Shown here one piece after another: positions 7,383 through 49,581 of a DNA stretch of 54,556 bases. The first letter of the stretch is position 1. Each line of letters opens with the position of its first letter. Origin of the DNA: a virus (Duplodnaviria; Caudoviricetes); the IMG/VR virus record IMGVR_UViG_3300032250_000707, positions 1 through 54,556 of that record; one strand, given 5' to 3'. Both the position numbers and the translations under genes were made by a program. Under the pieces are notes generated by a model. It did not search any database and was not told the origin of the DNA. It saw only the letters and a list, made by a program, of their open reading frames with translations.

Positions 7383-7399
7383 ATCACCTCCGAGTCGGG

Positions 7400-9652: not shown

Positions 9653-9691
9653 ATCTCAACTGAGTCGGGTCAACTTTTTGCCCCCAAAATG

Positions 9692-9738
9692 AAATCCCCC
9701 TCCATCCGGGAGGGCTTCTCCGGAGGAGGGGGATTTTT
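9692..9738. terminator. Intrinsic terminator-like hairpin downstream of capsid gene and tRNA
   Basis: Arms AAATCCCCCTCC (9692-9703) and GGAGGGGGATTT (9725-9736) with A/T runs on both sides. Confidence 0.65.
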
Positions 9739-13493: not shown

Positions 13494-14348
13494 TTAGACA
13501 ACCTTGCGCAGCCCGGAGAGGAGCCCGCGGATCTTTGATCCCAAGCCACCGGCGGCAGCTCCCGCACGGTAGAGCGGAGATGCTTTCTTAAGATCATCGC
13601 CAGCCTCGACCACCTTGGCAGTCCCGCCCAAACCGTGAGCGGCATCGACCGAAGGGGCGACTCCGCCAACCCTGGCCGAGTCATGCGAGAGCGGGGAATT
13701 GGTGGCCGCCGTGGCGACCGATCCGGATCCAGCACTGGTGGAGGGAGGATTAAATCCCTTGGAAAAGCCTCCCTTGAAATCATTGATTGCGGCGCCATAG
13801 GCCTGACCGACACCGCCAGCGCCTGCGCCATACTTGCGCATCACGGCCTGGTGGCCGAGGACAGCCCCAGCACCGAGACCGGCACCGGCCGCGGCATCAA
13901 GGATCGGATGGCCATTCTCATCGACCTTCTGATCGAAGGACTTCAGCGTGGAGGATTTCTCAGCCAGCTCCTTGAGGCGGTCGGCGGCCGAGAAGCGCTT
14001 GCCGGCGAGGGAACGGATCTTGGCAATCACATCGCTTCCCGCCTTCTTGTAGGCCTGCCCCACGGGAACGGAAACCTGCTTGGGCTTGATGAAGCGCCCC
14101 TTCTCACGGCGCAGGGTCTCCGTGCCATACTTCTTCATGACACCCACATGAGCCGCTCCAAGTCCGGCTCCGGCGAGGGCTGCCCCACCGGCGGCCTCGG
14201 CAATCCCGGGGCCATTGTAATGGTTCTCGATGCCGGTGAAATGCCCGTCCTTGTCGTAGGAGGCTTCGTTTTTGGTCAGGAGACCGAATTCTTTGACGGT
14301 CGAAGTGGTTTTGGCCGAAAGTTCGCGGAGGCGGGAAAGGGCGTTCAT
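13494..14348 (-). CDS. Putative head cargo protein with two glycine-zipper modules
   Basis: Internal repeat GAALAGAGLGAAHVGVMKKYG / GAGLGAGAVLGHQAVMRKYG, each preceded by RL(R/K)EL.....K.F; start ATG 14348 or GTG 14354. Confidence 0.7.
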   Translation of the reverse strand: MNALSRLRELSAKTTSTVKEFGLLTKNEASYDKDGHFTGIENHYNGPGIAEAAGGAALAGAGLGAAHVGVMKKYGTETLRREKGRFIKPKQVSVPVGQAYKKAGSDVIAKIRSLAGKRFSAADRLKELAEKSSTLKSFDQKVDENGHPILDAAAGAGLGAGAVLGHQAVMRKYGAGAGGVGQAYGAAINDFKGGFSKGFNPPSTSAGSGSVATAATNSPLSHDSARVGGVAPSVDAAHGLGGTAKVVEAGDDLKKASPLYRAGAAAGGLGSKIRGLLSGLRKVV

Positions 14349-14565: not shown

Positions 14566-17500
14566 CTACGCCTGCTTCGGAACCCAGCCCGCGAACTTCT
14601 TGGACATCGGAACGATCTTGGGTGCAGGGGCGGATGCCGCCTTCTTGGCCAACTTCGGAATGATCGGCAGGCCCGTCAGCTTGCGCGTGGCCGCGACTCC
14701 GGCCGCGGCACCGATCAGGCCGGTTCCGACAATCGCCCCTTTGAGAAGCGCTTCACGGTTTTCTTTTTTCTCGTGCCATTCCTTCTGGCGGCGGAATCGG
14801 GGGCGGGAACCAGGGGCAAAGACCCGCGCGCTCTTACCACGCGCATCGCGGACATCCCAGCCAGCCAGCGCGGCATCAAGGTCGAACTGTTTGAATTTGC
14901 GGAGCTTGGCGGCAAAGAGACTGATGCCATGCTTGCGGGCGGTGGCATCGATTTTGCGGACTTGGGGTAGAATGTGTTTTTGGCCGAGTCGGGTTTTGGC
15001 GGTGAGGGCGGCGCCTCCAAGCAAGGCAGCACCGGTGGCCGCAGTGCCCACGGCGCGGTGGAACCACGATTTTTCCCATTCGCGCCGTTGGGGTCTTCCA
15101 GCGAGATCGGTTCTCCGACCTCGGCCTGCCATGACATCTCCGGTATCACGGAGCAGGTTGGTGGCGCGGCCTCCCCACTTGTGAATTCCCTTGGCCTTGT
15201 TGTAAAAACCGCGGGCGGTCTGATAGGTCCCGAGAGTGGCCGCGTTCCCCGAAGCATCGACCAAATCTCCATGGAGGCCGAGGGCAGCCCGAGTCGGGCT
15301 CACATAGCGCTGGGAATCTCTTTCCCGAAGCTGAGAAGAATAACCGAATTCCTTCAGGGCACCCTTGATTCGCCGTCCTAGATTTTTCTTGGTCCTGTCA
15401 TCCTGACCGGCTGCGGCCAAGCGAGAATTGTTGATGGCATCGACCATCATTCCCTCGTCGGCCCCCTGGTGGGCTCCGTAAAGGGCTCCGGCACCGGCAC
15501 CGACCGCCGCGGCGACGGGAGCGCGCGAGCTTTCGATGGCATGTAGAGGGCGCCATGTCTTGGCTCCCTTGGAGAATCCTGCGGCGATCTTGGGTCCCAG
15601 CATGCCCTTCTTTAGGGCCACGGCGCCAAGCCCACCAATGGCTGCCCCAGCCAGGGCTCCACCCACGGCGGCCCGCTTGGTGAAAGCGGCGCGGTCCGAG
15701 GGATCCGGGTTTCCAAGAACCTTGTTGCCGAGCGCAGTCCCGCCACCAGCCAGGGCTCCCATGGCCCCGGCACCGATCCCCGCTGCTCGCAGGGCCGATT
15801 TGATCGATTTCCCTCGGGTCAGGAGGGCAGTTCCGCCGCCAAGCAGGGCACCGGAGGCAGCTCCGGAGATCCCGGCTTTGAGGACCTGATGAGATCCATC
15901 CTCGCGATCACGGATGGCAAATTCCTTGCTTGGGGAGGATGCCCGGAGGCGCTCCTTGATATGCTTGGCCAACACTTTTCTAAAAACAGGAACCTGACGG
16001 TGCGCCGCATCGATCGGGACGGGCAGAGCGGAGGAGTATCCGGGAATGTCTTTTTTGAGAACGGCCTCGTAGGCCTTATCCCCAATGACATGAATGCTGG
16101 GACGGGCCTTAGCGAGCTTGCGGACATAATCCCCTCGGGCGAACAGCTTGGCCTTCTTGGCCACAAGCGCACCGGCAAGTCCGACGCCAGCAACCGCGGG
16201 AAGAGCTTCCGCGCGTTTGGCCCACCGAGGGCGGTCTCCGTAGATGTCGCGCTTCTTGTTGGTCGCGGCACGGATGGCGAGGACTCCTCCCACACCGGCT
16301 CCGGCACCGAGACCGGCTCGGATGAGGCGTTGCTTGATGGTGGATCCTTTCCCGTGGGTGAGCCATCCGGCGGCGGTGCCGCCCCACGCGGCACGGTCCA
16401 TGTTGCGGTCGCGGCGATCCAGATCGCTCTCATTGACCTGCTTGACAAAGCGGTCGCGATTCACTCGGCCCGTGTAGGGGATACCATCCTCCTCGGTGCG
16501 AAGGGCAAAATTCTTTTGATTTAATGTTTTCATGGATCGGCCGTCAGCCATTAGGTGGCCAAGGATTGTTTTGGGTGCTTTCGATTTTGCGAAGCCGCGC
16601 ACGAAGCTGGGCACGCCTTTCATCGTTGCGCCGAGTTTGCCAAAAATAGTGTTCCCCTTTTTGGATCTCAGAACGTTGAGCTTTCTTAGCGCCACATCAC
16701 CTTCGGGAGTTCCCTTAGCAGCCCTGGCAAGGCGCGCGAGCTTGGTCTCCAGATCGCCGCCGATTTCATCGCCTGATTTTTTAGAAGCAATGGAGGCAAA
16801 CTTAGGCATCCGAGGAATGAAGGTCTCCCCTTCGAGACCTTGGGCACGCCTTGACTTGGCCTGAACCTTGGCCGCATATTGAGGATCAGCCTTTCCGGTC
16901 ATACTAATCTTGATTTGATTCACCATGTCATCAGTGCGGTCTTTTTGAGCTTTTATCCTCTGAGAGATGCCTGCAGCAGCTAGTCCGGCAAAAGCAGCAT
17001 CTTTTCCGATCTCACGAACACTGCGCCTGCTTTCATCGGTCACTTTCATACGATTGCCTCGGATTCCAGTCTTGGCAGAGGCGATGTGCTCGGAGGCGCC
17101 CTGAGCCAAGGCACCAAGACCGGCTCCGATCAAGGTTCCTCGATTCATTCTTCCTCCGTGAACCGGATGCCAAGCAGCAACACGACCCGCGAGGCCGCCG
17201 ATCGCGGTCGTGCGCGCCATCCTTCCAGCCTTGTGAAGAGTGGTATCCTCATCCTCAAGTCGGCCAAACATCTTTGGTTTACCGAAATAGGCTTTCAACG
17301 TGGGTAGTGCATGATTCTGCGGGTAGGACTCCGTATAGCCTGGCTTGCCTTGTTCCCCGATGCTCTTGGGGTATTTCTTCAGCCCATCACGGCGTCGTTT
17401 GAAGTGGAGATAATCCATGGGCGCCATGGCCATGGAAGGAGCCGCGGCAGCGGCAGCTCCGATCAGGGCATATTTGCCGCGTGAAGATTTTGCAGCATGA

Positions 17501-20436
17501 ATACGCCATTTTTCAGGAATTGATCCTGCAGATGCTTTGTCTCGAAAAAGCGCATGGCCGAGCGCGCCATAGCCAGCCCCCAGGACTCCAGGAATCGCTG
17601 AGTTAATGGCGGTTTGCCTTGCAGCGGGCCTGAGAGGTCCGTTCTTCAGAAGCTCCTCGTCTTTTTTTTGCAGCTTTGGGTTTTTTTCAAAATGTTTAGC
17701 CGTATTGAACTGAGCTGAGAGCCTCACCAGCCGACCGAGCCATCCCTTGCGGAAGTTTCCGGCAGCCTGCTCGCCATGGGCCAAGACGGCGCGGATCGCC
17801 TTGGCGGTGGGAGTGACCTCATCGGCAGCTTTTCCGACCTTGAGCCCAGCATGAAGGACCCCGCCACCGGCGGCGAGCGCCCCGGCCGCGATGGCCCCAT
17901 CGCGTAGCTTCTCGGAGCCGGAACGCTCGCGACGATCAGCGGAGAATTCCTTGCCGGGGTTGGCCTGCTTCCAGACCGCATGAGTGCGGCGGACGGCTTC
18001 CTTCTCCCCCTTGGTGAGGTTGGGATTGCGGGCGAGGTTCTGGAAGCTGGCATTGCCTGCGCGATAGCGATCCTTGGCAGCCACCTTGGCAGCCTTGGCC
18101 CCCTCCGCGGCGCGAGCCTCCCCTGCCACACGGGCGTTGCGGCGGGCGGTGGCGATCTTGCTGGCCGTGGAGCGCTTGATGGCGAGCTTTTCAGCTTCCC
18201 CTACCGTGCCGCGCAATCCGCGGGCGCCCAGAGCAAGACCCGCGGCGAGGCCCGTGGAGAGAATGCCGGTCTTGAGGAGTTCGTGACGCTCCTCCTCGGG
18301 AGTCCGGGAGAAGAGTTTGATGCCGCCCAGGAGAGCGGAGCAGTTCCAGCGCTTGAGAGCCGCACCCTTGGGGGTGAGTTTGCCATCCTTGGAAGTGGGG
18401 CCGTGGACGCCGCCCATGCGGGCACAAAAGGAATCGCGCCGCTTGGCCGCCTTGCTTCCCGGCTTCAGCTCGGAGGGTTTTTCGGTGACGGGGCGCTGCA
18501 GATGCGATCCGTTCTCCCTGTTGTATTTCTCGCGGAAAGAGTCGTTGAGGCCGCCGGTGCGGGCATGGCGCTTGGCAGAGTAGCGCAGGAAAGGTTTCTC
18601 GAACTGCTTCATGCCCTGTTCCCGGGCGGTCAACTCTTCAAACCATTTGGTGAGCCCGAGGTTCTTTTTACCTGCAACCGTACTCGCAATGGTGCCTTTG
18701 ACCAGCTTGGCGATCCGTCGAGAGGCAGGGAGATGCTTGGCGGGAGATTTTCGTCCAAAAAGCTGTTTCCGGTAGGCCACGAGTTCCTCACCGGCCAACT
18801 TGGAAACCGTATCAGGAGCACCCCCTCGGCGCTGCTGGAGGAGGCTATGGACTATTTCGTGTCGCCGCAGCGCTTTGCGCGCCACTTGGTAAGGATCGGG
18901 AACAACGTCTCGAGAACCTCCCCCCAGGTGGGATCGAAGTGTTCCATTTCCCCCGGAATACGAGCGGATAATTTTTCCAAGGCGAGACCACTCGGGAGGG
19001 CGGATTCCTTTGGAAGGAATGGTGATCCTGCCCCCACGCTCGAGCTTGGAAACGCCGACATCGGATTTTCCCTGGGATCGATATTGCCTTTCAACGGATT
19101 GCCCTCCGGACTGGGACTCTTTTTCATGTTTCTTGAGAAGACCTCCCGCAGAAGTGTGGTCAGCGAGGCGATTGGAGTCGTGATGAACGGCGACATAAGG
19201 CGTAGAATACCCCTCCGGTATCAGCCCTGCAAAATCTTTTGTTGCGGCGGGATTGTGGCCCAACGCTTTGAGCTGCTGGCCACGGAAAGGCTGTTTCATG
19301 TGACCCATGCGGCCCGGATGGGAGAGCGAGAGCCACTCCTTGAACTGCTCGATCGTGCAGGTGGAGACAGGGCCGAGCTTCCAGTCCTTGGGGTAATGGG
19401 AGAGGTAGAGCCTCTCCGCCTGCTCGCGCGTGTCGCACCCCAGGATGAACTTGGTCTCGTCAAAGGACTCTCCCTTGTGCTGATCGATGGCAACCACGAG
19501 CTGGCTGCGATGCGATGGACCCAGGAAGACATCGACCTGATCGCCATCCTTCCCCTTGGTGCGAGGGATGTAGCCGTAGTCGGCGTGCATCTCATTGCCC
19601 CAAGGCTTGCCGTCATCATCCACGCCGCGCCGGATGCTGCCCCGGGGATTTTCCAGGGTGACCGGGATGCCCTGAAAGCTCAGGGATCCCTTGCGGTAGT
19701 TGCCCGCCTTTTTCTGGCCCTCGGTCGGGTTGCGATCCGTGCGGTTGCGCGCCTCATCGAGCGCGGCCTGATAGTCTGCCCGCTCAAACCATTTGGTGAT
19801 GTATCCCTTGTCGACCTGATATTTGGTGCTGCGATAGGCGCCGCGGATCGCGCTTTTGATCCGGTCGGCAAGCGGACGGGATCTGTTTGGGGATTTTTTC
19901 CCGAGAAACTGATTTTTGTTTGCGGCTAACTCTTCGACAAAAGCCGAAGCAATACTCTTGGGAGGACCACCCCTTCTTTGCTGGAGAACGCTAGGGGTGA
20001 TCTCGTGCCTGCGGATGCCCTTCTGGGCATTGCGGACTAATACTCCATAGTCGGAACCCCCAGGCTCCGATCCCGCAGGTCGCGGGATGACATTTCGCAG
20101 GGAGCGCTCGGGCGGGAAGACAAGGAGCCCTCCGTCACGCAATCGCCGCTCGGCAAGCCCTCTTCTCTGCTCGAGAGTGGACGAGGGATGCTTAGGAACG
20201 ATGGCTGCTGCCCGCTCCTTGTAAATACTATCGACGGACTTGGGAGCATCCAATTCAGCATCCTTTTCATAAGCGGAACGAAGAGTGGTCGAGTGGGCAT
20301 AGGATCCAAGGGGTTCACCAGGGGGAGGAGGGCGGCGATCTACCGCCGGTCGAATGTATCCCTCGGGAATCATCCGGGCAAACTCTTTCAGCCACCCGAT
20401 CGCGTCGAGGGCATGCTCAAGACGGTCGGCACTCAT
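14566..20436 (-). CDS. Giant modular polyvalent/polyprotein-like virion protein (1956 aa): two zincin-like modules, InPase-like domain, DUF6321-like domain, many glycine-zipper modules
   Basis: ATGA-coupled to portal; NPTEGQKKAGNYRKG...ENPRG...DYGYI..T.G.DGD.VDVFLGP...FDE.K (InPase of polyvalent proteins); RRHEIVH...EE; GGLN...KAAKRRDSFCARM...ALKRWNC. Confidence 0.85.
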   Translation of the reverse strand: MSADRLEHALDAIGWLKEFARMIPEGYIRPAVDRRPPPPGEPLGSYAHSTTLRSAYEKDAELDAPKSVDSIYKERAAAIVPKHPSSTLEQRRGLAERRLRDGGLLVFPPERSLRNVIPRPAGSEPGGSDYGVLVRNAQKGIRRHEITPSVLQQRRGGPPKSIASAFVEELAANKNQFLGKKSPNRSRPLADRIKSAIRGAYRSTKYQVDKGYITKWFERADYQAALDEARNRTDRNPTEGQKKAGNYRKGSLSFQGIPVTLENPRGSIRRGVDDDGKPWGNEMHADYGYIPRTKGKDGDQVDVFLGPSHRSQLVVAIDQHKGESFDETKFILGCDTREQAERLYLSHYPKDWKLGPVSTCTIEQFKEWLSLSHPGRMGHMKQPFRGQQLKALGHNPAATKDFAGLIPEGYSTPYVAVHHDSNRLADHTSAGGLLKKHEKESQSGGQSVERQYRSQGKSDVGVSKLERGGRITIPSKGIRPPEWSRLGKIIRSYSGGNGTLRSHLGGGSRDVVPDPYQVARKALRRHEIVHSLLQQRRGGAPDTVSKLAGEELVAYRKQLFGRKSPAKHLPASRRIAKLVKGTIASTVAGKKNLGLTKWFEELTAREQGMKQFEKPFLRYSAKRHARTGGLNDSFREKYNRENGSHLQRPVTEKPSELKPGSKAAKRRDSFCARMGGVHGPTSKDGKLTPKGAALKRWNCSALLGGIKLFSRTPEEERHELLKTGILSTGLAAGLALGARGLRGTVGEAEKLAIKRSTASKIATARRNARVAGEARAAEGAKAAKVAAKDRYRAGNASFQNLARNPNLTKGEKEAVRRTHAVWKQANPGKEFSADRRERSGSEKLRDGAIAAGALAAGGGVLHAGLKVGKAADEVTPTAKAIRAVLAHGEQAAGNFRKGWLGRLVRLSAQFNTAKHFEKNPKLQKKDEELLKNGPLRPAARQTAINSAIPGVLGAGYGALGHALFRDKASAGSIPEKWRIHAAKSSRGKYALIGAAAAAAPSMAMAPMDYLHFKRRRDGLKKYPKSIGEQGKPGYTESYPQNHALPTLKAYFGKPKMFGRLEDEDTTLHKAGRMARTTAIGGLAGRVAAWHPVHGGRMNRGTLIGAGLGALAQGASEHIASAKTGIRGNRMKVTDESRRSVREIGKDAAFAGLAAAGISQRIKAQKDRTDDMVNQIKISMTGKADPQYAAKVQAKSRRAQGLEGETFIPRMPKFASIASKKSGDEIGGDLETKLARLARAAKGTPEGDVALRKLNVLRSKKGNTIFGKLGATMKGVPSFVRGFAKSKAPKTILGHLMADGRSMKTLNQKNFALRTEEDGIPYTGRVNRDRFVKQVNESDLDRRDRNMDRAAWGGTAAGWLTHGKGSTIKQRLIRAGLGAGAGVGGVLAIRAATNKKRDIYGDRPRWAKRAEALPAVAGVGLAGALVAKKAKLFARGDYVRKLAKARPSIHVIGDKAYEAVLKKDIPGYSSALPVPIDAAHRQVPVFRKVLAKHIKERLRASSPSKEFAIRDREDGSHQVLKAGISGAASGALLGGGTALLTRGKSIKSALRAAGIGAGAMGALAGGGTALGNKVLGNPDPSDRAAFTKRAAVGGALAGAAIGGLGAVALKKGMLGPKIAAGFSKGAKTWRPLHAIESSRAPVAAAVGAGAGALYGAHQGADEGMMVDAINNSRLAAAGQDDRTKKNLGRRIKGALKEFGYSSQLRERDSQRYVSPTRAALGLHGDLVDASGNAATLGTYQTARGFYNKAKGIHKWGGRATNLLRDTGDVMAGRGRRTDLAGRPQRREWEKSWFHRAVGTAATGAALLGGAALTAKTRLGQKHILPQVRKIDATARKHGISLFAAKLRKFKQFDLDAALAGWDVRDARGKSARVFAPGSRPRFRRQKEWHEKKENREALLKGAIVGTGLIGAAAGVAATRKLTGLPIIPKLAKKAASAPAPKIVPMSKKFAGWVPKQA

Positions 20437-22148
20437 TCCTCGGGAGGTTGCGGCACCGTGGTCTCCTCCGGCCTCGGAGCCGGGCGGGGCACCATCAGCT
20501 CGGCATCCTGCGGCGTGATGCCGTAGAGGGTCACCAAGGTGGCGATGGCTGCCTTGCGATCCATGGTCCCCTCCCCTGCCTGCTTGAGCACCTCGAGAAG
20601 CGGTTTGGTGTCCTCACCCGATGGGACGAGGCCCTGCGGCGGCGGCGAGGGTGGCGTATTCATGGCGGCGAGCGTCTGGGTCGGATTGGTCAGGCGGGAG
20701 GTAATCAGCTCGATAGGAACTCCGCTCTCGGCGGCCAGGCCCTGGTAGAACTTCACCTCGCTTGCAGCGCGGCGAGCCACGTCCTCGAAGTTGCCTCCGT
20801 TGTCGCTGATCAGGTCGCTCACGGTGATCACTCCGGCGTTGAGGAGCTGGAGCTTGGCCGTCACATCGTTGCCGTAGTCGCCGGTCAGGGTGGCTCCAAA
20901 TCCCCAACGGCCATTCCTCCAGTTGGGATGGAATGGGAGCTGACCCGTGGCGATGGCGCGCCCAAGGACGCGATCGCGCACGGGGCCAAGCGCCTGGGCG
21001 ACGAGCAGCTTCTGGAGACGGGCGATGGCGCGCGTAGCCTGGGCGATCTCCACACGGCCGGTATGGCCGGAGAGGGCGCTCATGTCGTAGAGGAAGCCGT
21101 AGGGCATGTTCAGAGGTTGGCAGATGGCCCGGACGGTCGCGCTGTAGAGCGCCATGAAGGCTCCGCTAGGGCGCATCGTTCCCGGGGCAAACTGCACTTT
21201 TTCCCCCTGGGTGAGGCGAAGCACCTTTCCGGCCTCCATGCTGATTTCCGAAGCACGGGAGGAGCTTGTGGAGGAGGCGGGCGCGTCGGTGGCATTCCAT
21301 GCGGAATCGCTTCCCGGCTTGTAGGGGTCGTCGGTGTAGATCATGCCCGCGTGGCCGACTTGCCACTTGGCAGCCATCATCTCGGCATCCGCGATCTCAT
21401 AAAGGTCCCGGGCTGGCGCCAGGGCGGCAGCCAGGGCGGTCACGCCGCGGTACTGATCCACCCTCCAGGGATCAAAGATGTGCAGGAAGCACTCCGCCGG
21501 GACATCGTGCTCGAAGGTCACGTTGGAGGTGATGCGGTCGCGCTTGTAGATCGAGTAGGAGAGAACGCGCCCCACCTCGTCGATATTGACGCCTCCAATG
21601 CAAAGCGGGTTGCCCGCGTCGGCCGGGTTGAGCACATTGCCGATGCGGTCCGACTCAATGGGCTGGATGCGGATCTGCCATTCCCCGTTCTCCTCGACAT
21701 CGACCATGTTCCATCCATGGTCGCCATCCACAAGGACGGCCGACTCAGCCATCCGAAGGAGCGCTCCGAGCTGATGGCGGCCCGTGACATCGGCCTTCTC
21801 GGCCCACTCCACCATGTAGTGGCTATACTCGCCGTCGGCCGTCTTATCCCCCGTGCTGGGAATGTAGAGGATGTCGTCGGTGGCGTACTGGACAATCCGC
21901 GCGACCATCCCCTGAAGAATGCCGAAATTACGGTGCAGGTCGCGTGCCTGCCACATCAGCTCGATGCGATCCCGACCGGCGCGCCAGCTCTCCGAGGAGG
22001 CATTTTTTTGACGGCCTCCGGATCCGCCGCGGCGGCGGCCGGGGGAGGCGGCATCGTAGGAGAAAAGCTTGAGGCGATCCCGGGCAATGGCGCGGTTAAG
22101 CGCCACGGAGGGGGCAACGGAGGCGATGGTTCGTTCCAGAAAATTCAT
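20433..22148 (-). CDS. Portal protein, lambda gpB family (571 aa)
   Basis: YDAA...ARDL.RN, VLVDGD, IESDRI, GV.ID..GR...Y, LHIFDP.R..QYRG motifs; follows gpW. Confidence 0.93.
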   Translation of the reverse strand: MNFLERTIASVAPSVALNRAIARDRLKLFSYDAASPGRRRGGSGGRQKNASSESWRAGRDRIELMWQARDLHRNFGILQGMVARIVQYATDDILYIPSTGDKTADGEYSHYMVEWAEKADVTGRHQLGALLRMAESAVLVDGDHGWNMVDVEENGEWQIRIQPIESDRIGNVLNPADAGNPLCIGGVNIDEVGRVLSYSIYKRDRITSNVTFEHDVPAECFLHIFDPWRVDQYRGVTALAAALAPARDLYEIADAEMMAAKWQVGHAGMIYTDDPYKPGSDSAWNATDAPASSTSSSRASEISMEAGKVLRLTQGEKVQFAPGTMRPSGAFMALYSATVRAICQPLNMPYGFLYDMSALSGHTGRVEIAQATRAIARLQKLLVAQALGPVRDRVLGRAIATGQLPFHPNWRNGRWGFGATLTGDYGNDVTAKLQLLNAGVITVSDLISDNGGNFEDVARRAASEVKFYQGLAAESGVPIELITSRLTNPTQTLAAMNTPPSPPPQGLVPSGEDTKPLLEVLKQAGEGTMDRKAAIATLVTLYGITPQDAELMVPRPAPRPEETTVPQPPEE

Positions 22149-22713: not shown

Positions 22714-22843
22714 GGGTGAAGATTTCACGCTTAAACCCCTTATTATTAGAGATTGAAAAAAAAAGGGTTTGAAAGAGGGTTTGAAAGAGGGAATGAGGGT
22801 GAAGATTTCACGCTTAAACCCCTTATTATTAGAGATTGAAAAA
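22714..22843. repeat. 47-bp perfect direct repeat (22714-22760, 22797-22843) with tandem AGGGTTTGAAAG x2 in the spacer
   Basis: GGGTGAAGATTTCACGCTTAAACCCCTTATTATTAGAGATTGAAAAA read twice. Confidence 0.9.
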
Positions 22844-23863: not shown

Positions 23864-24178
23864 CGTGGACGGATACGCCGTCCGCTAATTTCCCACCCCG
23901 GAAACCCCGGCACAGGGGAGGCCGATAAGTCCCAAGCCACCGGCACGCGCGTCACCTCAACCCCTGCACGGGGATTTTTTTTGCACGGGTCACGCCGTCC
24001 GCAATTTTCACCATGAGCACCAAGCAACTCTATCACCGCGTCCGAACGTCCCTCCTGGAGGGGCTCGCCCCATGCAGTGAGGAAGAGTTCCGACGCCGCT
24101 GCCGCATCCTGCATTACCTAACCCGCAGGATGGGCCGCCTAACAGCCTAACAGTCTTCAGCCTATCCACCTAACTCCC

Positions 24179-28686: not shown

Positions 28687-28979
28687 AAACCGCCGAATCA
28701 GCCCTCAAGGCCGACGTGGAGATCACCGCGCGCGAGTTCAACAAGCGCCACGAGTGGGACATCAACGCCGCCATCGATCTCGCCAAGGAAGTCCTGACCG
28801 ACGCAAACGCCCACCAAGAGGTGCGCTACCTCACCCACGGGGAGGAACTAGCCGATGCCCTGCGCCAACTCCTGGAGCGTAGCCACAGCCTCGACCAATC
28901 CCCAACCCATGACGGCCTCCTCAACTGCGAGGCCATCGCCCGCGCCAGGGAAGCCCTCCGCAACATCGCACGACCATGA
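28683..28979 (+). CDS. Hypothetical protein (98 aa, MKTAESAL)
   Basis: ATGA coupling at both ends. Confidence 0.65.
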   Translation: MKTAESALKADVEITAREFNKRHEWDINAAIDLAKEVLTDANAHQEVRYLTHGEELADALRQLLERSHSLDQSPTHDGLLNCEAIARAREALRNIARP

Positions 28980-29224
28980 GCACCAAGCGAAAGATGCCCG
29001 ACGATCTCACCGAGATGCAGGATGAGATCACCGATATGCTTCTAAAGATCCACAAAACCGAAGGAGCAGAAGGGGTGCGTAATATCTTGCGCATGGCGGT
29101 CGTTAACTACATTTACGAGACACCAGTTCCAGGACGCCACAAAGGCCTGCAGCGTATCCAACTCCTCAATCAGCTCGCCGAGGCCATCACCATCCCCTGC
29201 CACGCGCATGATACCATCTCATGA
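28976..29224 (+). CDS. Hypothetical protein (82 aa)
   Basis: ATGA coupling. Confidence 0.6.
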   Translation: MSTKRKMPDDLTEMQDEITDMLLKIHKTEGAEGVRNILRMAVVNYIYETPVPGRHKGLQRIQLLNQLAEAITIPCHAHDTIS

Positions 29225-29241
29225 TCACCCAGCCCCAGCCA

Positions 29242-29289
29242 CCGATTGCGAATCGGAGCCCCTCTGCTACAGTGGGATCCATGAACTCA
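29242..29289 (+). promoter_or_regulatory. Repeat R1 copy a: sigma70-like promoter for a probable leaderless transcript
   Basis: TTGCGA-16 nt-TACAGT with extended TG, ATG 7 nt downstream; CCGATT/AATCGG palindrome over the -35; 47/48 identical to 31111-31158. Confidence 0.7.
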
Positions 29290-29634
29290 ATTTTCTCGAT
29301 TGTCCCTCGCAAGATGATCAAGGGTCCGCTCTGGGTGTTTGACGATCCGGATCGCGGGCTCCAGGCAGAACCTTTTCTTGAGGACGCATCCGCAGCACTC
29401 GATAAGATCGCCGAAAAGATCGGAGCAGTCGGGGAAATGGTGCTCGCTTTTTCAGCTACCGAGATACCCGACGCAACCATGGTCATCGAGCGCATCGGAT
29501 CAGGAGACCATGCGGATCTCCATGGCGTGCTCTATCTTTTCGAGAAAAAGAGGGTCTGGCTTTGCCCGGCGACCACCAAGTATTTCCCGAAGCCACCAGA
29601 AAAAATCTGGCTCAAGGCTTATCGCTACGCATAA
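29281..29634 (+). CDS. DUF6717-like protein (117 aa)
   Basis: MNSI..I.P....WVFDD...GL..EPF...FSA...WLCPA..KYF..PP..I pattern. Confidence 0.75.
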   Translation: MNSIFSIVPRKMIKGPLWVFDDPDRGLQAEPFLEDASAALDKIAEKIGAVGEMVLAFSATEIPDATMVIERIGSGDHADLHGVLYLFEKKRVWLCPATTKYFPKPPEKIWLKAYRYA

Positions 29635-29707
29635 TGTGTTTTTATGATCGGAACCGTCCTTGATCTTTTTGTGAAATCGATGGCAGAGCAAGCTGCTTTG
29701 GCCGCCG

Positions 29708-30865
29708 TCAAGGCCGCAAAAGAAAAGGCCGGAGAACTCGCGGATTATCTCCAATATCCTGCGCCGCATTCAAACTCGGAGTCGCAAGATAGTCCTCGAT
29801 GTGACGACCAATCCCCGTCTTAGCTCCTGAGGCAGCCCCTTTTGCAAATCGGTCTTTGAGGATTTTGGTTCCGTATTTTGAATGCGCAACAGCCGTGCGG
29901 ACTACATTGTATGCCGGATAGATCGGTTCCACGGCGGCCATGGCGCCACCTACGATTCCAGCTCCCATGTAATCAGATTTCTTGGGGGCCCTATTCATCG
30001 GCACCTGCGGGAGCTTTGAGATGATTTTTTCAGTAATCTTGGATCGCGGTCCAGCCACAATCCCGGCAGCGGCTTTTGTTGCCTGGTTGGCCCCAGGGAT
30101 CTTTGAAGCAATAATGGTCCCTCCCTTTCTTAAAAAACGCCTGCTACCCAGGCCCTGATGGTAGATTTCCGCAAGTTCAGGGCCCGCCACAATGTCCGCC
30201 GTTTTTGTAATCGCAGGGTGGATCATTTTACCGGATTTCGCATGACGAACACCTGTCTGGTAAATAGCCGCTCCAACCCTGTTCATCAGCGTATTGGGCT
30301 TGAGCATCCTTTTGTAGAGAACATTCATCCCGACATGTAATCCACCAGCAATTCCCGCGCCAGCCAGCAGGGAGAATTCTTTCTTCTTGAGGATGACGTT
30401 AGGAGCCCCGGAGACATGATCAGCCTGATAGCCAGCACGCCGAGCCATCCTTTCATAATGGCTACCCAGCTTCTCATTGGTCGTAATTCCAGAGGTCTCG
30501 GGAGAGAGCGTTTCTGGACGATAGACAATTTCTTTCCTGTTCTTGCTGAGATTGGCAAGCATCGGCTTCATAATCCCTCCGACTCGGGCACCATTGCGGT
30601 AAGTTCTGTGGTCGTCTTCCGGTGAGTCCACAATGTCCCAAGAGACGCGATCTTTACTTTTGCGATTCAAGATCTGAGAAACCTCCGGGTTGTCCTTATG
30701 CCGGATCGTCACCGTCCTGGGATACCGAGCCCCGGAATCAGGTGTGATAAGACTCCACCTGGTCCCAGGAGCCCACTTGCCGCCAAGTCGACCAGTGAAC
30801 ACGCCGGTTTTGTATCCAAACTCAGACAGGGCCGCCAGACCCCTAAGCCTTTCCATGAAATTCAT
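29708..30865 (-). CDS. Putative head cargo protein, two modules (385 aa), antisense within the early island
   Basis: Leader MNFMERLRGLAALSEF|G; internal KKKEF|S followed by glycine zipper; TTGAC 15 nt upstream. Confidence 0.75.
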   Translation of the reverse strand: MNFMERLRGLAALSEFGYKTGVFTGRLGGKWAPGTRWSLITPDSGARYPRTVTIRHKDNPEVSQILNRKSKDRVSWDIVDSPEDDHRTYRNGARVGGIMKPMLANLSKNRKEIVYRPETLSPETSGITTNEKLGSHYERMARRAGYQADHVSGAPNVILKKKEFSLLAGAGIAGGLHVGMNVLYKRMLKPNTLMNRVGAAIYQTGVRHAKSGKMIHPAITKTADIVAGPELAEIYHQGLGSRRFLRKGGTIIASKIPGANQATKAAAGIVAGPRSKITEKIISKLPQVPMNRAPKKSDYMGAGIVGGAMAAVEPIYPAYNVVRTAVAHSKYGTKILKDRFAKGAASGAKTGIGRHIEDYLATPSLNAAQDIGDNPRVLRPFLLRP

Positions 30866-30885
30866 CACCCACCACCAAACGTCAA
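30852..30885. repeat. Repeat R2 copy a (34 bp): TTGAC box plus start of the antisense gene
   Basis: TCCATGAAATTCATCACCCACCACCAAACGTCAA, identical at 31848-31881. Confidence 0.9.
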
Positions 30886-30886
30886 C

Positions 30887-31087
30887 ATGACTCCACAAGA
30901 TTTCATCGAGTGCGCGAGTAAAAGAGGGTTTCACCTTTCAGAAGCCGACGCTCTCGACATTCGAGACAGGTGGGCCATGCCAGGAGAATCCGCGGAAAGC
31001 GCGATCTGCGGATGGTTGCTTTGTTTTGAAACGTGCGATCCTAATCTCGAGGTAAAATTCGGACTTCCGGCCAGCATCTTTGCATGA
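30887..31087 (+). CDS. Hypothetical protein (66 aa, MTPQDFIE)
   Basis: Start refined; A/C-rich leader supplied by R2. Confidence 0.55.
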   Translation: MTPQDFIECASKRGFHLSEADALDIRDRWAMPGESAESAICGWLLCFETCDPNLEVKFGLPASIFA

Positions 31088-31110
31088 ACACCCAAACACT
31101 TACCCCGCCT

Positions 31111-31158
31111 CCGATTGCGAATCGGAGCCCCTCTGCTACAGTGAGATCCATGAACTCA
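31111..31158 (+). promoter_or_regulatory. Repeat R1 copy b: sigma70-like promoter
   Basis: CCGATTGCGAATCGGAGCCCCTCTGCTACAGTGAGATCCATGAACTCA. Confidence 0.7.
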
Positions 31159-31512
31159 GTCAATACCCCCATCCAGAAAGCAGTTATTAACTTTCTCATC
31201 GAGACTAAGAGAAGGGTTGCCTGGAATGGAAATCCATGCACGCCGATCCAGATGTTCCGAAAAGGAGAACGCCTCGGAGGCATAAATCAACCATGCGATG
31301 TCGTTGCGTTTTTCCCGACACCGAAGGAGTTCTCTACGATGCCACTGCCGGAATTTTGCCGGATCTACGGAATCAAGGTTCCTGAAGTCCCTGCAGGTCC
31401 TGCGAATGAAGTCCAGGGCGCGCCTTCTTGCGCCACTCTTCCGATCCCGGAGCCCATTTATTCCTCCGGTTGGCCAGGCGCGAAGCCTCTGCCGCTGGAA
31501 CATGCGGTCTGA
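31150..31512 (+). CDS. Hypothetical protein (120 aa, MNSVNTP)
   Basis: Starts at the R1b ATG; 3' end overlaps the convergent gene. Confidence 0.55.
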   Translation: MNSVNTPIQKAVINFLIETKRRVAWNGNPCTPIQMFRKGERLGGINQPCDVVAFFPTPKEFSTMPLPEFCRIYGIKVPEVPAGPANEVQGAPSCATLPIPEPIYSSGWPGAKPLPLEHAV

Positions 31513-31861
31513 GGTTGGTGGCAAATCCACTCGCCTTTTCAGAGCGGTGATGATTTGCCGTCAGCCATAGGAAGTCATCCGGCCTCTCCTCGGCAAGCTG
31601 CAGAGCCGCCATGGGGTGCATCGGGCCGGTGTAGATTTTCCCGTTGGAGGCCTGCACGGTCACATGGGTCTTTAGGATTTTTTCATCCACAGGGGATTTC
31701 TTCCGAGCCGAAGAAAATCTCTCCCGCCAGACGCTTCGCGGGGCACGACCTTTAGCAAGCGCAGAACGCGCCGCCTCGTAATTTGGATACCCAAGCTCTT
31801 TGTAACTGAATAAGAGTTCCGAAAATTCCGACACTTTCCTCAATCGCTCCATGAAATTCAT
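31373..31861 (-). CDS. Putative head cargo protein (162 aa), antisense within the early island
   Basis: Leader MNFMERLRKVSEF|SELLF|S; TG..H...GF.TN...V...EA...LHSQDL small phage domain; TTGAC 15 nt upstream. Confidence 0.7.
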   Translation of the reverse strand: MNFMERLRKVSEFSELLFSYKELGYPNYEAARSALAKGRAPRSVWRERFSSARKKSPVDEKILKTHVTVQASNGKIYTGPMHPMAALQLAEERPDDFLWLTANHHRSEKASGFATNLRPHVPAAEASRLANRRNKWAPGSEEWRKKARPGLHSQDLQGLQEP

Positions 31862-31881
31862 CACCCACCACCAAACGTCAA
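31848..31881. repeat. Repeat R2 copy b (34 bp)
   Basis: Identical to 30852-30885. Confidence 0.9.
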
Positions 31882-31885
31882 TTCC

Positions 31886-32152
31886 ATGACCACCACCTAC
31901 ACCACTAAGGCAGCCGGGCTTCTCATGGCATCCCTGCCCGAGGAGGCCTGGAGGAACGGTCAGCTAGACAAGCATCTCCTCATCGTCCACCTCGACGACG
32001 AGGACACCCTCACCGTCACCCGCGCGGAGGCCGACGGCATCATCTACCCCGACACCAACATCGACCTGGCTGAATATGAGGATGGGATCCTCGATCGCGA
32101 TGACTCGATCGATCTCATGCACTATCTCCGCCGCAACGACATGATCGAATGA
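31886..32152 (+). CDS. Hypothetical acidic protein (88 aa)
   Basis: ORF resumes the plus-strand chain. Confidence 0.65.
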   Translation: MTTTYTTKAAGLLMASLPEEAWRNGQLDKHLLIVHLDDEDTLTVTRAEADGIIYPDTNIDLAEYEDGILDRDDSIDLMHYLRRNDMIE

Positions 32153-32364
32153 GCACAAAAACCAACTCAGAACCCGCAGGACGGATTGCTTTCAGCTTCC
32201 GCGTCACCCTGGAGGCCATCCCGTGCACCCCAGGAATCCCGACGGTCCAACTCAAGAAAAGCGCCCGCGCCGCCGTCGAGAACGCCCTGCGAAAGTCCTA
32301 CGAGGAAGGTTTCATCCATCCCCTTGAGGACGAAACAGGGCTCGAAATCGTCTCCATCAAATAA
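32149..32364 (+). CDS. Hypothetical protein (71 aa)
   Basis: ATGA coupling. Confidence 0.65.
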   Translation: MSTKTNSEPAGRIAFSFRVTLEAIPCTPGIPTVQLKKSARAAVENALRKSYEEGFIHPLEDETGLEIVSIK

Positions 32365-34742: not shown

Positions 34743-35021
34743 ATGAAGACCTGTATCTTCAGGGGGCATCGCATGCCAAACCCCTTCACACTCCAGTGTC
34801 CTCAGCACCACTGGAATGATCTTTTGGGAAAATCGATCGACGGGGAATTTCTTATCACGATAGGAGTATGGAGACCCCAATCCGAAAATGTCTTGGAACG
34901 GATCGGATATGTGGAAGTCCATCACATGGGACCCCTGGACCAAATCCTCTACCCACCCTACACGGGTCCGGCGCCGATCGCCTCCCCCTCCATAGAGGAC
35001 CCTAGCTTCAAGATCTGCTGA
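34743..35021 (+). CDS. Hypothetical protein; 3' end overlaps the terminase 3' end
   Basis: Last plus-strand ORF of the island. Confidence 0.4.
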   Translation: MKTCIFRGHRMPNPFTLQCPQHHWNDLLGKSIDGEFLITIGVWRPQSENVLERIGYVEVHHMGPLDQILYPPYTGPAPIASPSIEDPSFKIC

Positions 35022-36835
35022 TCGTTGTTGAGTGATCGCATCGTCTCGTCCTCAAGCACTCCTCCACTGAGGGCCATCACGATCTGCATGCACTCGCAAT
35101 CCCACAAGTGGTTGGCGCGGCGGAAGGCCTTCCAGTAGTAGATGAGCCGTCCGGTTCGGGTTTCTTTGGGAACGCGCCGCTCGGCATTCATTTGGTGGAC
35201 GTAATCCTTGGTGACTTGTGCATGCACATGCCATCGGGGCGGATTGGCACCGCGGAGCGCCGTCAGGCGGTCTTTGATCCGGTCGGTACACCAGTAGCGG
35301 TATTTGGCCCGGGTGTTGTTCTCGTTCTGGTGAATCGTTCCCAGATGAGGATCCCTGAACTGCACCGGCGAGTATTCCCTGACAACCCGCAGGCCCGGCC
35401 CCAGGGTGTGCGGGTATCCGTTGCGATCCTGTCCCCAGAGTCCTCGCCAGCCGTATTTGACCAGCAGCGCGGCCACCATGTTCGGCCGGTGCGCCATATC
35501 AAGGCCGACCCTCTGCGGATCCACTCCATAGTCTTTCTGCAGCTTTTCGAGTTCCTCCGGGGTATCGACCCGATCTGCAAAGAGGAGCCAGCTTTCCTGC
35601 CCATTGGGGCCATTGGGATGCCCCCAGCTCCGCACAACAGCCCAGAAGTGGCCTTCCTGCACGTCGACCGTCATGATCGGGATCTTCTTATCGGGTAGAT
35701 CGGAGACCGTGTAGATGGTGGTCGGGATCGGCTCGTCGTCGACGGCCTGCTCGGAGTCAAATGGCTCGGCCAGCGTCGAGTTGATGAAGTTCTGCCTCAG
35801 GGTCATGCTCCCTTTGGTCTGGAGCCACTTGGCAGCCAAGAGTCCCCAATGGCATTCCTTCAAGGGGGCGTAGAGCGAATTGAGGTGGTAGCTTCGGAAT
35901 CCGCGGAGCGGATTGGGGTTGGTAGCGCGCCATTCGCCACCTAGGAGCATAACCTCCTTCTGATGGTTGTAGATTTTCTGGTCGCACACCTGGCAGCGGT
36001 AAAACGTATTACGGATGACTTTTTCCAGATCCCAATCACCGGCGGCATTTTTGCTCTCAAACTCGTCTTTGTCCCACCACCGGACTTGCTTCCAGTTGAG
36101 CCGGATCTTTTCCCCACAACAGGGGCAAGGCGTGTGGAAGTATCTCTGATCCCCTTTCAGAAACTCCCCCCAAATCACGCCGTCCGTTGTCGTAGGAGTG
36201 CTGGTTTTGACGCGCAGCGGGTAGTGGAAGCTCTTGGAGCGCTCTTCCGCGTTCTGAAGCGCACCCGCCTCTCGCTCGGTCCTCAGTTTGAATTTGTCGG
36301 TCTCATCCATGACGATGAAGCCGGCGGGGTGGGATGCCAGGTTGGCCGGAGAGTTACTGCCTACGAACTTCAACGATGCCCTGGCAAAGGTCTGTCCGCA
36401 GGTCGTGTAGAGATGCCGGTCCTCGGGTTTTTGAGCGCGAAGCGGAGGGCAATCCTCCACGTATGGCCGCCAACGATTGGTGGAGAACGTCCTGGCCAGA
36501 TCCAGGTTAGGCATGACCCACAGGAGGTTCATCGGATCGTTACAGAGCTTCCAGGCTGCCCCACCCATGATCGTCATGGTTTTGGCTGTCTGAGTGCCGA
36601 AACAGAGCACCAGATCGGTGACCGACTTGTCTCGGAAGCATTCCAGAGGCTCACGGACATAGGGCCTGGAATCCGTGCGAAAGGCCCCAGGCGTGGCCGT
36701 TTCCCGCTCCGTCAAAACAACATGACGCTCCAGCCACTGCCAGACAGGAATATCTTCCGGCTGCGACAGCATATCCCACATGGCCGCTTCAACGGCCGCG
36801 GATGCCTCAGGGCTACTTTGAATCCGGTGGGCCAT
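34958..36835 (-). CDS. terL: Terminase large subunit, lambda GpA family (625 aa)
   Basis: RPYVREPL, GTQTAKT (Walker A variant), MDETDK (Walker B), TSTPT, GDQR...CPCC, TVDVQ, NHLWDCE. Confidence 0.95.
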   Translation of the reverse strand: MAHRIQSSPEASAAVEAAMWDMLSQPEDIPVWQWLERHVVLTERETATPGAFRTDSRPYVREPLECFRDKSVTDLVLCFGTQTAKTMTIMGGAAWKLCNDPMNLLWVMPNLDLARTFSTNRWRPYVEDCPPLRAQKPEDRHLYTTCGQTFARASLKFVGSNSPANLASHPAGFIVMDETDKFKLRTEREAGALQNAEERSKSFHYPLRVKTSTPTTTDGVIWGEFLKGDQRYFHTPCPCCGEKIRLNWKQVRWWDKDEFESKNAAGDWDLEKVIRNTFYRCQVCDQKIYNHQKEVMLLGGEWRATNPNPLRGFRSYHLNSLYAPLKECHWGLLAAKWLQTKGSMTLRQNFINSTLAEPFDSEQAVDDEPIPTTIYTVSDLPDKKIPIMTVDVQEGHFWAVVRSWGHPNGPNGQESWLLFADRVDTPEELEKLQKDYGVDPQRVGLDMAHRPNMVAALLVKYGWRGLWGQDRNGYPHTLGPGLRVVREYSPVQFRDPHLGTIHQNENNTRAKYRYWCTDRIKDRLTALRGANPPRWHVHAQVTKDYVHQMNAERRVPKETRTGRLIYYWKAFRRANHLWDCECMQIVMALSGGVLEDETMRSLNNDQQILKLGSSMEGEAIGAGPV

Positions 36836-41969: not shown

Positions 41970-42217
41970 TTCATTAGTTCTTCTTCTATGAGCTTGATGG
42001 TTTCTGGAAATCGCTCAGTGACTGCAACTAACAGGGTCGCAGCTCGCTCAAGCTCGACTTCAAGCTTCTGTCTAGCTTCCCGCTCGCGGCAGAGAATTGA
42101 ACGCGAATTGTGGACAGGATCGAGATCGTGCTTAACCGAGAAGCACGCGTAAGTCCGACCCCACGAGCCAACGTTTTCCACTTCAGCCCCGCAGTGGGGG
42201 CAGTTGTCAGCACTCAT
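41966..42217 (-). CDS. Zinc-finger protein, paralog of 39827..40096 (83 aa)
   Basis: CPHCGA...YACF...LCREREARQK. Confidence 0.65.
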   Translation of the reverse strand: MSADNCPHCGAEVENVGSWGRTYACFSVKHDLDPVHNSRSILCREREARQKLEVELERAATLLVAVTERFPETIKLIEEELMK

Positions 42218-42540
42218 TTTCCATTCCTCCCTGCGTAGACATGGAGCTGGATCATCTTTTTCATTCCGAGCTTCAGTCGGATATTATTCCGATGGACTTG
42301 GATCGTCCGAGGGCTAATCCCGAGACGGTCCGCACTCTGCTGGGTTGTGTAGCCGCTGGAGATATGGCTAAGGATCTCCTGCTCGCGCTCCGTAAGCTTG
42401 GATTCCCTGGTCTTGGAGTTCTTGATCGTGAACTCGCATCCATCCGGCTGACGGCGAGCAAAAGCAGACAGCAGAGCCAGATAAGCAGTGCCCCTGCTTC
42501 CATCGGTTTTGACGGCGATCTGGAATTGATACTGCTTCAC
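42214..42540 (-). CDS. LuxR-type HTH protein (108 aa)
   Basis: LTEREQEILSHISSGYTTQQSADRLGISPRTIQVHRNNIRLKLG; GTG start with SD. Confidence 0.85.
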   Translation of the reverse strand: MKQYQFQIAVKTDGSRGTAYLALLSAFARRQPDGCEFTIKNSKTRESKLTEREQEILSHISSGYTTQQSADRLGISPRTIQVHRNNIRLKLGMKKMIQLHVYAGRNGK

Positions 42541-42788
42541 AGGGCACCTCCTGCGCTTTCGCGATGGCCCGGACATCCGGTATCGTAGCAAAACCCATCG
42601 CAAGGCTCACCCACGGGGAGCACTTTTTTCCCATTGTGAAGTTGAAGACGGAGCCAATCGCGGACATAGCGACCGCTCTGCTTGTTTCCATTTTCGTCTC
42701 GGAAAAGGTTTCGGAGATCTCTATCCGGCCAGCGAAGCACGCCTTCGATGCACACGCACATGTGGAATGTTCTGGTAACGACGCTCAT
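42537..42788 (-). CDS. Phage hypothetical protein (83 aa)
   Basis: HMC..I.G.L...G.KVLP.G.PCDGF.Y.TGCPGH. Confidence 0.7.
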   Translation of the reverse strand: MSVVTRTFHMCVCIEGVLRWPDRDLRNLFRDENGNKQSGRYVRDWLRLQLHNGKKVLPVGEPCDGFCYDTGCPGHRESAGGAL

Positions 42789-49326: not shown

Positions 49327-49581
49327 TCAGAGCTTGAGCCCGTCGGCGCAGGGCCCGACGACCGTATTGGTTGGGTTGTAGCTCTCCGGGTAGCAGGTAC
49401 GGCCCTCATTGAGCCGCTTGAGGTCCATTCCGAACCACATGATGGCTTCCTGTAGTTTCGTGATGGCCAAGGCCCTCTCGCGACTTTGGGGCAAGCTCTT
49501 TGCTTTCTGGAGCAGAGCGTCGATCCCGACGCGAAGCTCTTTGTTGGCAATGATGCCTTTTTCGATGAAGTCTTCTTCCAT
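49327..49581 (-). CDS. Acb2/Tad1-like helical hairpin protein (84 aa)
   Basis: SRERALAITKLQEAIMW resembles the Tad1/Acb2-type RE..A.TKL.EA.MW helix. Confidence 0.6.
   Translation of the reverse strand: MEEDFIEKGIIANKELRVGIDALLQKAKSLPQSRERALAITKLQEAIMWFGMDLKRLNEGRTCYPESYNPTNTVVGPCADGLKL

Follow-up and report, generated by a model that had tools for sequence, protein, structure and literature searches.

The 54,556-nucleotide (nt) stretch of DNA analysed here (the window) is an entire IMG/VR virus record, IMGVR_UViG_3300032250_000707 (linear, CheckV completeness 68). Between positions 29242 and 31881 it carries two consecutive cassettes, each of which opens with a short sequence, R1, leading into a plus-strand gene (A), and closes with a second short sequence, R2, in which a convergent minus-strand gene (B) begins. 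The order, taken from the sequence and the list of open reading frames (ORFs), is X, R1a, A1, B1, R2a, C, R1b, A2, B2, R2b, Y. With moderate confidence, and from sequence comparison, we favour the interpretation that this locus is a hypervariable slot for accessory genes in an uncultured Verrucomicrobiota phage, bounded by two frames (R1 and R2) between which A/B pairs are exchanged.

In this interpretation, R1 would drive the plus-strand A gene, and R2, which consists of a GTTGAC box, a Shine-Dalgarno-like purine run, a start codon and the first codons of a leader peptide, would begin the minus-strand B gene. Because the frames are near-identical among co-infecting relatives while the bodies between them differ, homologous recombination in or next to the frames would exchange A/B pairs. 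The best explanation for the order found in the window is recombination within gene C, its probable crossover site, that joined an A-B-R2-C arrangement, of the type of locus L012, to a C-R1-A-B-R2-Y arrangement, of the type of locus L029; one such event would give exactly this order. The frames are more alike within the genome (R1 core, 33/33; R2, 34/34) than between genomes; the frames of the two parents may already have been alike, or they may have been homogenised later. The repeats, the differences in cargo, the breakpoints, the leader, the enrichment of the TTGAC motif and the joint variation of A and B types are observations; promoter activity, late timing, the recombination route and the targeting by the leader are what we infer.

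The relatives used in the comparison came from a search with the large terminase (34958-36835, minus strand), which returned 18 viral loci and 6 genome loci. The closest relatives by terminase were G001 (a 55,444-nt record), L007 (short) and L029 (a contig of a Verrucomicrobiia metagenome-assembled genome, MAG). The terminases of G001 and L029 are 88-89% identical to that of the window (L029, 88%), and the terminase of L012 is 63% identical. The window and G001 are collinear, with an nt identity of about 70-80%. Chthoniobacter MAGs contain relatives with a terminase identity of 52-53%, which points to Verrucomicrobiota as the host phylum. None of the phage terminases in GenBank exceeded 27% identity to that of the window.

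Proposed exchange of cargo between the frames

Both frames recur in close relatives. In G001, one cassette lies between X, which is accompanied by an extra zinc-ribbon gene, and Y. Its R1 differs at 3 of 46 nt and its R2 at 6 of 34 nt, and they surround a pair, A3/B3, of which A3 is DUF6717-like (31% identical to A1, E 1e-10; Pfam score of 17.7 bits, below the cut-off) and B3 has the leader alone in common with B1 and B2. G001 is without C, A2, B2 and the C-terminal module (C-module) of B1. In L029, the order is X', three unique genes and C'-R1'-A4-B4-R2'-Y', where A4 is DUF6717-like (32%) and B4 is a member (26%) of the BN family, to which the N-terminal module (N-module) of B1 belongs. The L029 counterparts of the second pair, A2' and B2' (38% and 58%), lie elsewhere, nearer the terminase, and the start codon of B2' overlaps that of its divergent neighbour. 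In L012, a DUF6717-like A is followed by a BN-type B that has a TTGAC box and then by a homolog of C, which is the order of cassette 1. G001 and L029 carry the same frames with different cargo, and this refutes both an invariant gene content and a simple duplication.

The borders of the replaced stretches were located with blastn. Against G001, the breakpoints fall at 29242-29287 and 31823-31891. Against L029, homology covers 30887-31155 and 31819-32165 and stops at the inner frame edges. The homology breaks at the ATG-AAC of A and about 14 codons into B. The types of A and B co-vary, with a DUF6717-like A joined to a BN body three times and A2 joined to B2 two to three times; P0004 and P0007, which are relatives of B2 and A2, each lie on a 4009-nt contig, probably the same one. 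Since the A/B types recur, pairs and not single ORFs appear to be the unit of exchange. The first-pass annotation of this DNA had proposed that the frames are recombination handles that capture new ORFs; the breakpoints at the frame edges agree with the handles, but the recurring pairs show that the capture of new ORFs was too free a description.

A simple tandem duplication of the cassette, followed by divergence of the cargo, is highly improbable. It would account for the two tandem copies and for the leader that the B genes share, but the bodies have no detectable similarity between frames that are 95-100% identical, and the synonymous codons just inside R2 are already scrambled. The enclosed genes are indeed unrelated between the cassettes, as had been noted earlier: comparison of A1 with A2 by BLASTP gave an E of 0.65 (the A2 query was 2 residues longer than the MNS start at 31150), and the alignment of B1 with B2 is limited to the first 21 residues (13/21 identical, E 5e-5). 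In addition, orthologs of A2 and B2 lie at the other L029 locus (38% and 58%), and those of A1 and of the N-module of B1 lie inside the L029 frame. The presence of L029 orthologs of both cargo pairs excludes simple duplication.

The recurrence of the same pairs also bears on a second alternative, which we regard as possible although doubtful: A and B may be cognate pairs (an effector with its regulator or antidote, or an antisense-coupled early/late switch) that move as units, with the frames kept for expression and targeting and not as handles. A DUF6717-like A accompanies a BN-type B in the window, L029 and L012, and both the window and L029 have A2 together with B2. In five of six pairs, the convergent ORFs overlap at their 3' ends, by 17-158 nt, and the A2'/B2' pair of L029 exists without R1 or R2. 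However, two independent comparisons place the homology breakpoints at the frame edges, G001 joins a DUF6717-like A to a different B body, and no known toxin or antitoxin family was matched in Pfam or PHROGs.

The third alternative, an unlikely one in our judgement, is a mobile mini-element, in which recombination of R2 with R2, or of R1 with R1, would excise or amplify a 996-nt unit (C-R1-A2-B2-R2) as circles or in tandem, like the mini-circles of PeSL (promoter-early stem-loop) cassettes in T4-type phages. The population data come from one run, probably of the source sample, in the form of contigs and unitigs only, and the unitigs break at R1 and R2. Mean word depths were 20.1 for C and 18.2 for cassette 2, compared with 13.1 and 13.7 for the flanks and 13.6 for cassette 1, and the R1 and R2 unitigs had about the summed depth. 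The excess in depth spans exactly the R2-to-R2 unit and is taken as a lead only: contig depth is not copy number, the two unitigs span only 285 and 764 nt, and a co-occurring strain that shares only the cassette part would look alike.

R1 and R2 as candidate control elements

R1 occupies 29234-29289 (copy a) and 31103-31158 (copy b) on the plus strand. The two copies are 95% identical over 56 nt and share a 33-nt core exactly (29242-29274 and 31111-31143). R2 lies on the minus strand at 30852-30885 (copy a) and 31848-31881 (copy b), and its copies are identical at 34/34 positions. Patterns were counted with up to 3 mismatches over the 54,556 nt and compared with 100 shuffles. Each of the two had exactly two matches in the window and none in any of the 100 shuffles, and the number expected by chance was 0 for both. 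The two exact-core copies of each element and their absence from the shuffles bear out the earlier observation that both repeats are present at both cassettes. Exact scans of IMG/VR with a 24-nt core of R1 and a 22-nt core of R2 returned nothing.

In R1a, TTGCGA (29246-29251) is followed by a 16-nt spacer, TACAGT, 7 nt and the ATG of A1; R1 closes at its 3' end with ATG-AAC-TCA (MNS). The -35-like TTGCGA is unchanged in all four R1 copies (window a and b, G001 and L029), the -10-like hexamer is TACAGT or TAAAAT, and the distance to the ATG is 7 nt in all copies. TTGCGA-16 nt-TACAGT agrees with the sigma-70 consensus at 8 of 12 positions. R1 had been described as a sigma-70-like promoter with a palindrome. 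The hexamers of that description are kept, but a simple promoter scan made no call and the palindrome (6+3+6) is not conserved, being perfect in the window only, with one mismatch in G001 and lost in L029. Folding of R1 as a hairpin was no better than that of shuffles (z-scores of -0.5, -0.9, -1.6 and -0.3), and the shuffle comparison together with the lack of conservation ruled out an RNA hairpin. The promoter-plus-start pattern had no further instance in the four sequences scanned. This ruled out a promoter repeated throughout the genome and indicates that R1 belongs to the A gene alone and is no dispersed cassette. With a -10 hexamer at 7 nt before the ATG, transcription would give a leaderless or near-leaderless mRNA. 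On these features, R1 is most likely the 5' unit of gene A, with a sigma-70-type promoter and an mRNA of the leaderless type.

Looser similarity upstream of R1a extends to an in-frame ATG at 29221, and R1 might instead be the 5' coding end of A. If so, A1 and A2 would start at 29221 and 31084, respectively, with an ATGA overlap coupling their translation to that of the gene before them, and A would carry a conserved N-terminal extension of about 20 residues that mirrors the B leader, a reading to which we give limited credence. An upstream in-frame ATG with an open frame is found about 60 nt upstream in five of five cassettes (window a and b, G001, L029 and L012), and in window a, window b and L029 it overlaps the previous stop codon as ATGA. 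The sequence around this start is like that at other genes of the plus strand (ATGACCACC), and the rest of the plus-strand block is tightly packed. On the other hand, openness is weak evidence because another frame is also open in four of the five cassettes, and the codon changes among the four R1 copies, read by eye, are about 8 non-synonymous against 2 synonymous, with no clear third-position pattern. The Pfam profile of DUF6717 starts near MNS, the extension is absent from relatives in both A families, and the relatives of A2 (P0007, P0008 and the L029 copy) begin with MN(E)TP and lack the extension; the L029 copy of A2 has a stop codon 8 nt upstream, and the extension peptide is poorly kept in L012.

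The start contexts of the two strands were also compared. Plus-strand starts between about 24.1 and 34.5 kb have no Shine-Dalgarno motifs, have C-rich contexts (e.g. CCCATGACCACC) and often overlap the previous stop codon as ATGA, whereas the minus-strand late genes have sites of the GGAGG/GGGG type. This sequence difference suggests that a single phage initiates translation in two ways.

On the minus strand, R2 reads TTGAC, 15 nt that contain the purine-rich GGTGGTGGGTG, and then ATG-AAT-TTC-ATG-GA (MNFME), so that it includes the first 4 2/3 codons of the leader. Only 21-24 nt separate the start of B from that of its divergent neighbour, and R2 therefore fills the entire intergenic space. 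Of 18 minus-strand starts, 8 have a TTGAC that begins 20-26 nt ahead of the start codon, compared with 1 of 21 plus-strand starts. When B1 and B2 were left out, 6 of 16 minus-strand starts had the box (binomial P ~1e-10, for an interval that was picked after inspection and starts that were taken from ORF maps). In G001, the box is kept in five of six aligned orthologous upstream regions, with a variable spacer. The box of R2 (TTGAC/GTTGAC) fits a control box of the phage late genes, as found before structural genes, and late timing would follow from this resemblance. The B2' gene of L029 lacks R2, which means that R2 is not obligatory for a B gene. The earlier suggestion that R2 gives late expression is thus supported as far as the box is common to the upstream regions of structural genes, but R2 is not a general requirement.

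Two other features of the late region were recorded. A conserved AAAAAGTTGACCCGACTC-type element stands before late genes (7380-7427 and 9650-9697; also 12566, 8917, 14374 and 37538) and is a candidate late control element of this phage group. The product of 42214-42603 (minus strand; 129 aa) has a GerE/LuxR-type helix-turn-helix that resembles region 4 of sigma-70 (PF00196, E 2.6e-15); that it is the factor that reads the TTGAC box is speculation.

The leader peptide and the proteins of the slot

The first 21 residues that B1 and B2 share include a leader of about 17 residues, M-x-F-M/L-E/D-R-L-x-x-L-A/S-x-x-EF. In the wider form M-x-F-M/L-E/D-R-L-x-x-L-A/S-(0-10 residues)-E/K-F-G/A, it is present in the BN and B2 families and in the B genes of the relatives; in B1 and B2 it reads MNFMERLR...SEF. 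In profile-profile comparison (hhalign) of the three B families, only 12-17 leader residues aligned. The window, G001 and L029 together have 1121 ORFs, among which a hidden Markov model (HMM) of the leader found only the five B genes (E 3e-15 to 2e-6). In 22 further terminase-related loci (2442 ORFs) it found three more, in L012 (E 9e-5), L011 (0.017) and L009 (0.2). These three genes share the strand of the terminase gene and lie 3.8-5.3 kb downstream of it, with a TTGAC 15-16 nt before the ATG. The likeness of the leader at the protein level outlasts nt identity, as three of the four ERLR codons just inside R2 differ. The HMM and the profile comparison thus uphold the view that the B genes share a real leader on otherwise unrelated bodies. 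Judging from its sequence conservation, the leader may send the B proteins to a common destination, such as the prohead, the virion or a common partner.

A link of the leader to head proteins was considered and dropped. Two head-module proteins (12670-13488 and 13494-14348, both minus strand) have an N-terminal RLRELSA...(K/S)EF, and the first has an internal copy at about residue 172; the HMM gave an E of 0.015 for the internal copy only, and the N-terminal copies were not found.

The body of B1 (29708-30865, minus strand; 385 aa) comprises, with the leader, an N-module (residues 1-161, the BN family) and an all-helical C-module (residues 162-385). A phmmer search of 1.84 billion representatives gave 42 matches, which are split into separate N-module and C-module proteins. 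The stand-alone proteins of the BN class have 150-162 aa and match B1 over 1-161 (P0009, 57%), and those of the C-module class have about 230-260 aa and match it over 162-385 (P0002, 66%). B1 joins two modules that every relative identified has as separate proteins. Neither G001 nor the examined parts of L029 and L012 yielded the C-module. AF2 modelled this module as a helical bundle (pLDDT 85-97). Fusions to a C39 peptidase, to an SNF2 helicase or to DUF5661 occur among its relatives, and such enzyme domains are typical of polyvalent phage proteins. Comparison of B1 with the PDB by Foldseek gave no match at E <= 1e-3, and the best VIA match (R3H domain, Z 5.5) lay over a low-confidence part.

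B2 (31373-31861, minus strand; 162 aa) consists of the leader and a conserved body. Its relatives are conserved from end to end (P0004, 83%; P0005, 62%; P0006, 58%), and the L029 copy is 58% identical. In the ESM Atlas, B2 showed weak structural likeness only, to T4 Y16D (TM 0.46/0.63). Viral contigs scanned with P0002, the B2 family and the A2 family gave nothing. Two loci from a metagenome scan were rejected as bacterial chance matches to 'KELGYPNY'.

A1 (29281-29634, plus strand; 117 aa; the long form would begin at 29221) belongs to DUF6717, with a match to PF20475 (E 4.4e-7; 30.8 bits) above the gathering cut-off of 27. Positions 12-113 of the profile align to residues 34-132 of the long form of A1, and the profile begins at about MNS. 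The relatives of A1 in L029, G001 and L012 are 31-32% identical to it. The AF2 model of A1 is a beta-rich domain (pLDDT 68.6). When it was compared by VIA, the top four rows were all Rpb8/Rpo8 (Z 6.3-5.3 over 100-103 of 117 residues), and the next row had a Z of 4.0. As a weak lead from this model, DUF6717 may touch transcription, although the Z is below the reliable level. Foldseek found nothing for A1, and a search of a literature library for 'DUF6717' gave no match.

A2 (31150-31512, plus strand; 120 aa) is unrelated to A1, and its last 140 nt are antisense to B2. Its relatives P0007 (73%) and P0008 (68%) both start with MNTPIQ and lack the MNSV prefix that R1 supplies, and identity to the L029 copy is 38%. 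Across the 140-nt 3' overlap, the conserved end of A2 faces the most conserved part of B2, and conservation of this end may be a by-product of the constraint on B2.

The genes next to the cassettes are shared with relatives to different degrees. The left flank gene X (28976-29224, plus strand; 82 aa) lies at or near the slot in relatives (tblastn, 55% in L029 and 41% in G001). Gene C (30887-31087, plus strand; 66 aa), which separates the cassettes, has two homologs in L029 (77% and 58%) and one in L012 (70%); it stands after B in L012 and before R1 in L029, and no homolog was found in G001. The right flank gene Y (31886-32152, plus strand; 88 aa) starts 24 nt from the start of B2 and lies to the right of R2 in G001 and L029.

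Genome setting, known systems and implications

The lambda-type portal (20433-22148), the major head protein (9915-10874) and the terminase are encoded on the minus strand, as are further late genes. The portal gene adjoins the gene of a polyvalent virion-type protein of 1956 aa (14566-20436, minus strand) with InPase (PF18823) and DUF6321 domains, for which PHROG matches were to DarB-like and minor head proteins. Small plus-strand genes form a block at about 24.1-34.5 kb between portal and terminase, and the twin cassettes lie inside it. The B genes with the leader share both their strand and their upstream box with the structural genes. No protease was identified in the head module.

Several features elsewhere in the genome were noted on their own account. 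A perfect 47-nt direct repeat (22714-22760 and 22797-22843, 83 nt apart) lies in an AT-richer stretch (GC ~0.47-0.51) that separates the portal side from the beginning of the plus-strand block and may mark a regulatory or origin region. Short repeats of the AGCCTAA/CCTAAC type occupy the few intergenic spacers of the plus-strand block in the window and G001 (24110-24178; L008 10170-10225 and 9130-9165). The 84-aa product of 49327-49581 (minus strand) matches the Acb2/Tad1 hairpin domain (PF24729) at 34.4 bits, where the cut-off is 27, and is a candidate anti-CBASS or anti-Thoeris signal sponge.

A number of points weigh against a slot with exchange of A/B pairs. A simple sigma-70 scan called neither R1 nor R2, the TTGAC is too near the ATG for a classical -35 element, and the nucleotide motif of R1 is lost in L012. 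R1 may be coding, as the in-frame upstream ATG and open frame are kept in 5/5 cassettes. In L029, B2' is without the R2 box and A2' without R1. The frames were found in three genomes only, so that exchange rests on few events, and very fast divergence of orthologs under selection could mimic part of it, as the DUF6717/BN pairs are homologous at 26-32%. The link between the leader and head proteins is weak (HMM E 0.015, one internal motif). Finally, no deletion or circle joints were listed in the single contig-level run, and two more runs of the study showed nothing.

In tailed/lambdoid phage mosaicism, gene modules are exchanged at short boundary or linker sequences at gene borders. The slot in the window differs from lambdoid boundary sequences in that both of its borders are defined, functional-looking 5' units that face each other and the exchanged module is a convergent pair. 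A second comparison can be made with the PeSL elements of T4-type phages. Arbiol et al. (2010; PMC2839356) and Comeau et al. (2014; PMC4122927) describe a short conserved unit with a sigma-70-like promoter that ends in the downstream start codon, with a stem-loop terminator, in about 50 copies per genome. In these accounts, PeSL elements lie at insertion or replacement borders between close T4-type relatives and are a proposed substrate for the homologous exchange of unrelated ORFs (PMC2839356, PMC4122927). With respect to these descriptions, R1 is alike in its position at replacement breakpoints, and its make-up from promoter to start codon would be alike if the hexamers act as a promoter. 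It is unlike them in having two copies in the window and one each in G001 and L029, only before A, and it shares neither the stem-loop nor the many copies. Moreover, a second frame on the opposite strand, R2, closes the slot and includes the coding sequence of the leader.

The leader invites comparison with the capsid targeting sequence (CTS) of T4, which Rao and Black (2010; PMC3012670), with reference to Repoila et al. (1994), describe as a short conserved N-terminal peptide on diverse internal proteins encoded at polymorphic loci. Likewise, a short leader is found here on otherwise unrelated accessory proteins, and their genes are oriented, and apparently controlled, like late genes. The differences are an unrelated host phylum (Verrucomicrobiota) and phage lineage (terminase <=27% to any GenBank phage) and the pairing of each leader gene with a convergent partner. 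It is conceivable, though rather unlikely, that the slot is a dock for virion-borne or injected effectors, in which any body behind the leader and the late box would be made late and loaded into the particle as B, A, read from a promoter of the leaderless type, would act as its cognate antidote or regulator through overlapping antisense transcription, and pairs would be traded by recombination in the frames. Such a dock would correspond, in an unrelated lineage, to the T4 internal-protein/CTS system, but with two frames on two strands.

Collectively, the comparisons give partial support to the conclusion that this locus is a case of modular exchange at conserved 5' units, here in the form of a slot that has a leader and two frames on two strands, in a group of uncultured Verrucomicrobia phages. 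To our knowledge, hardly anything is known of the expression and diversification of accessory genes in Verrucomicrobiota phages. The locus offers candidate early and late control elements, a portable leader that marks fast-changing proteins and a place where close phages differ. If the frames are recombination substrates, the model of regulatory cassette shuffling would extend beyond T4-type phages. Should the leader prove to direct proteins to the virion, it would point to candidates for injected effectors or anti-defence proteins in this uncultured group and would also supply a tag with which to load foreign proteins.

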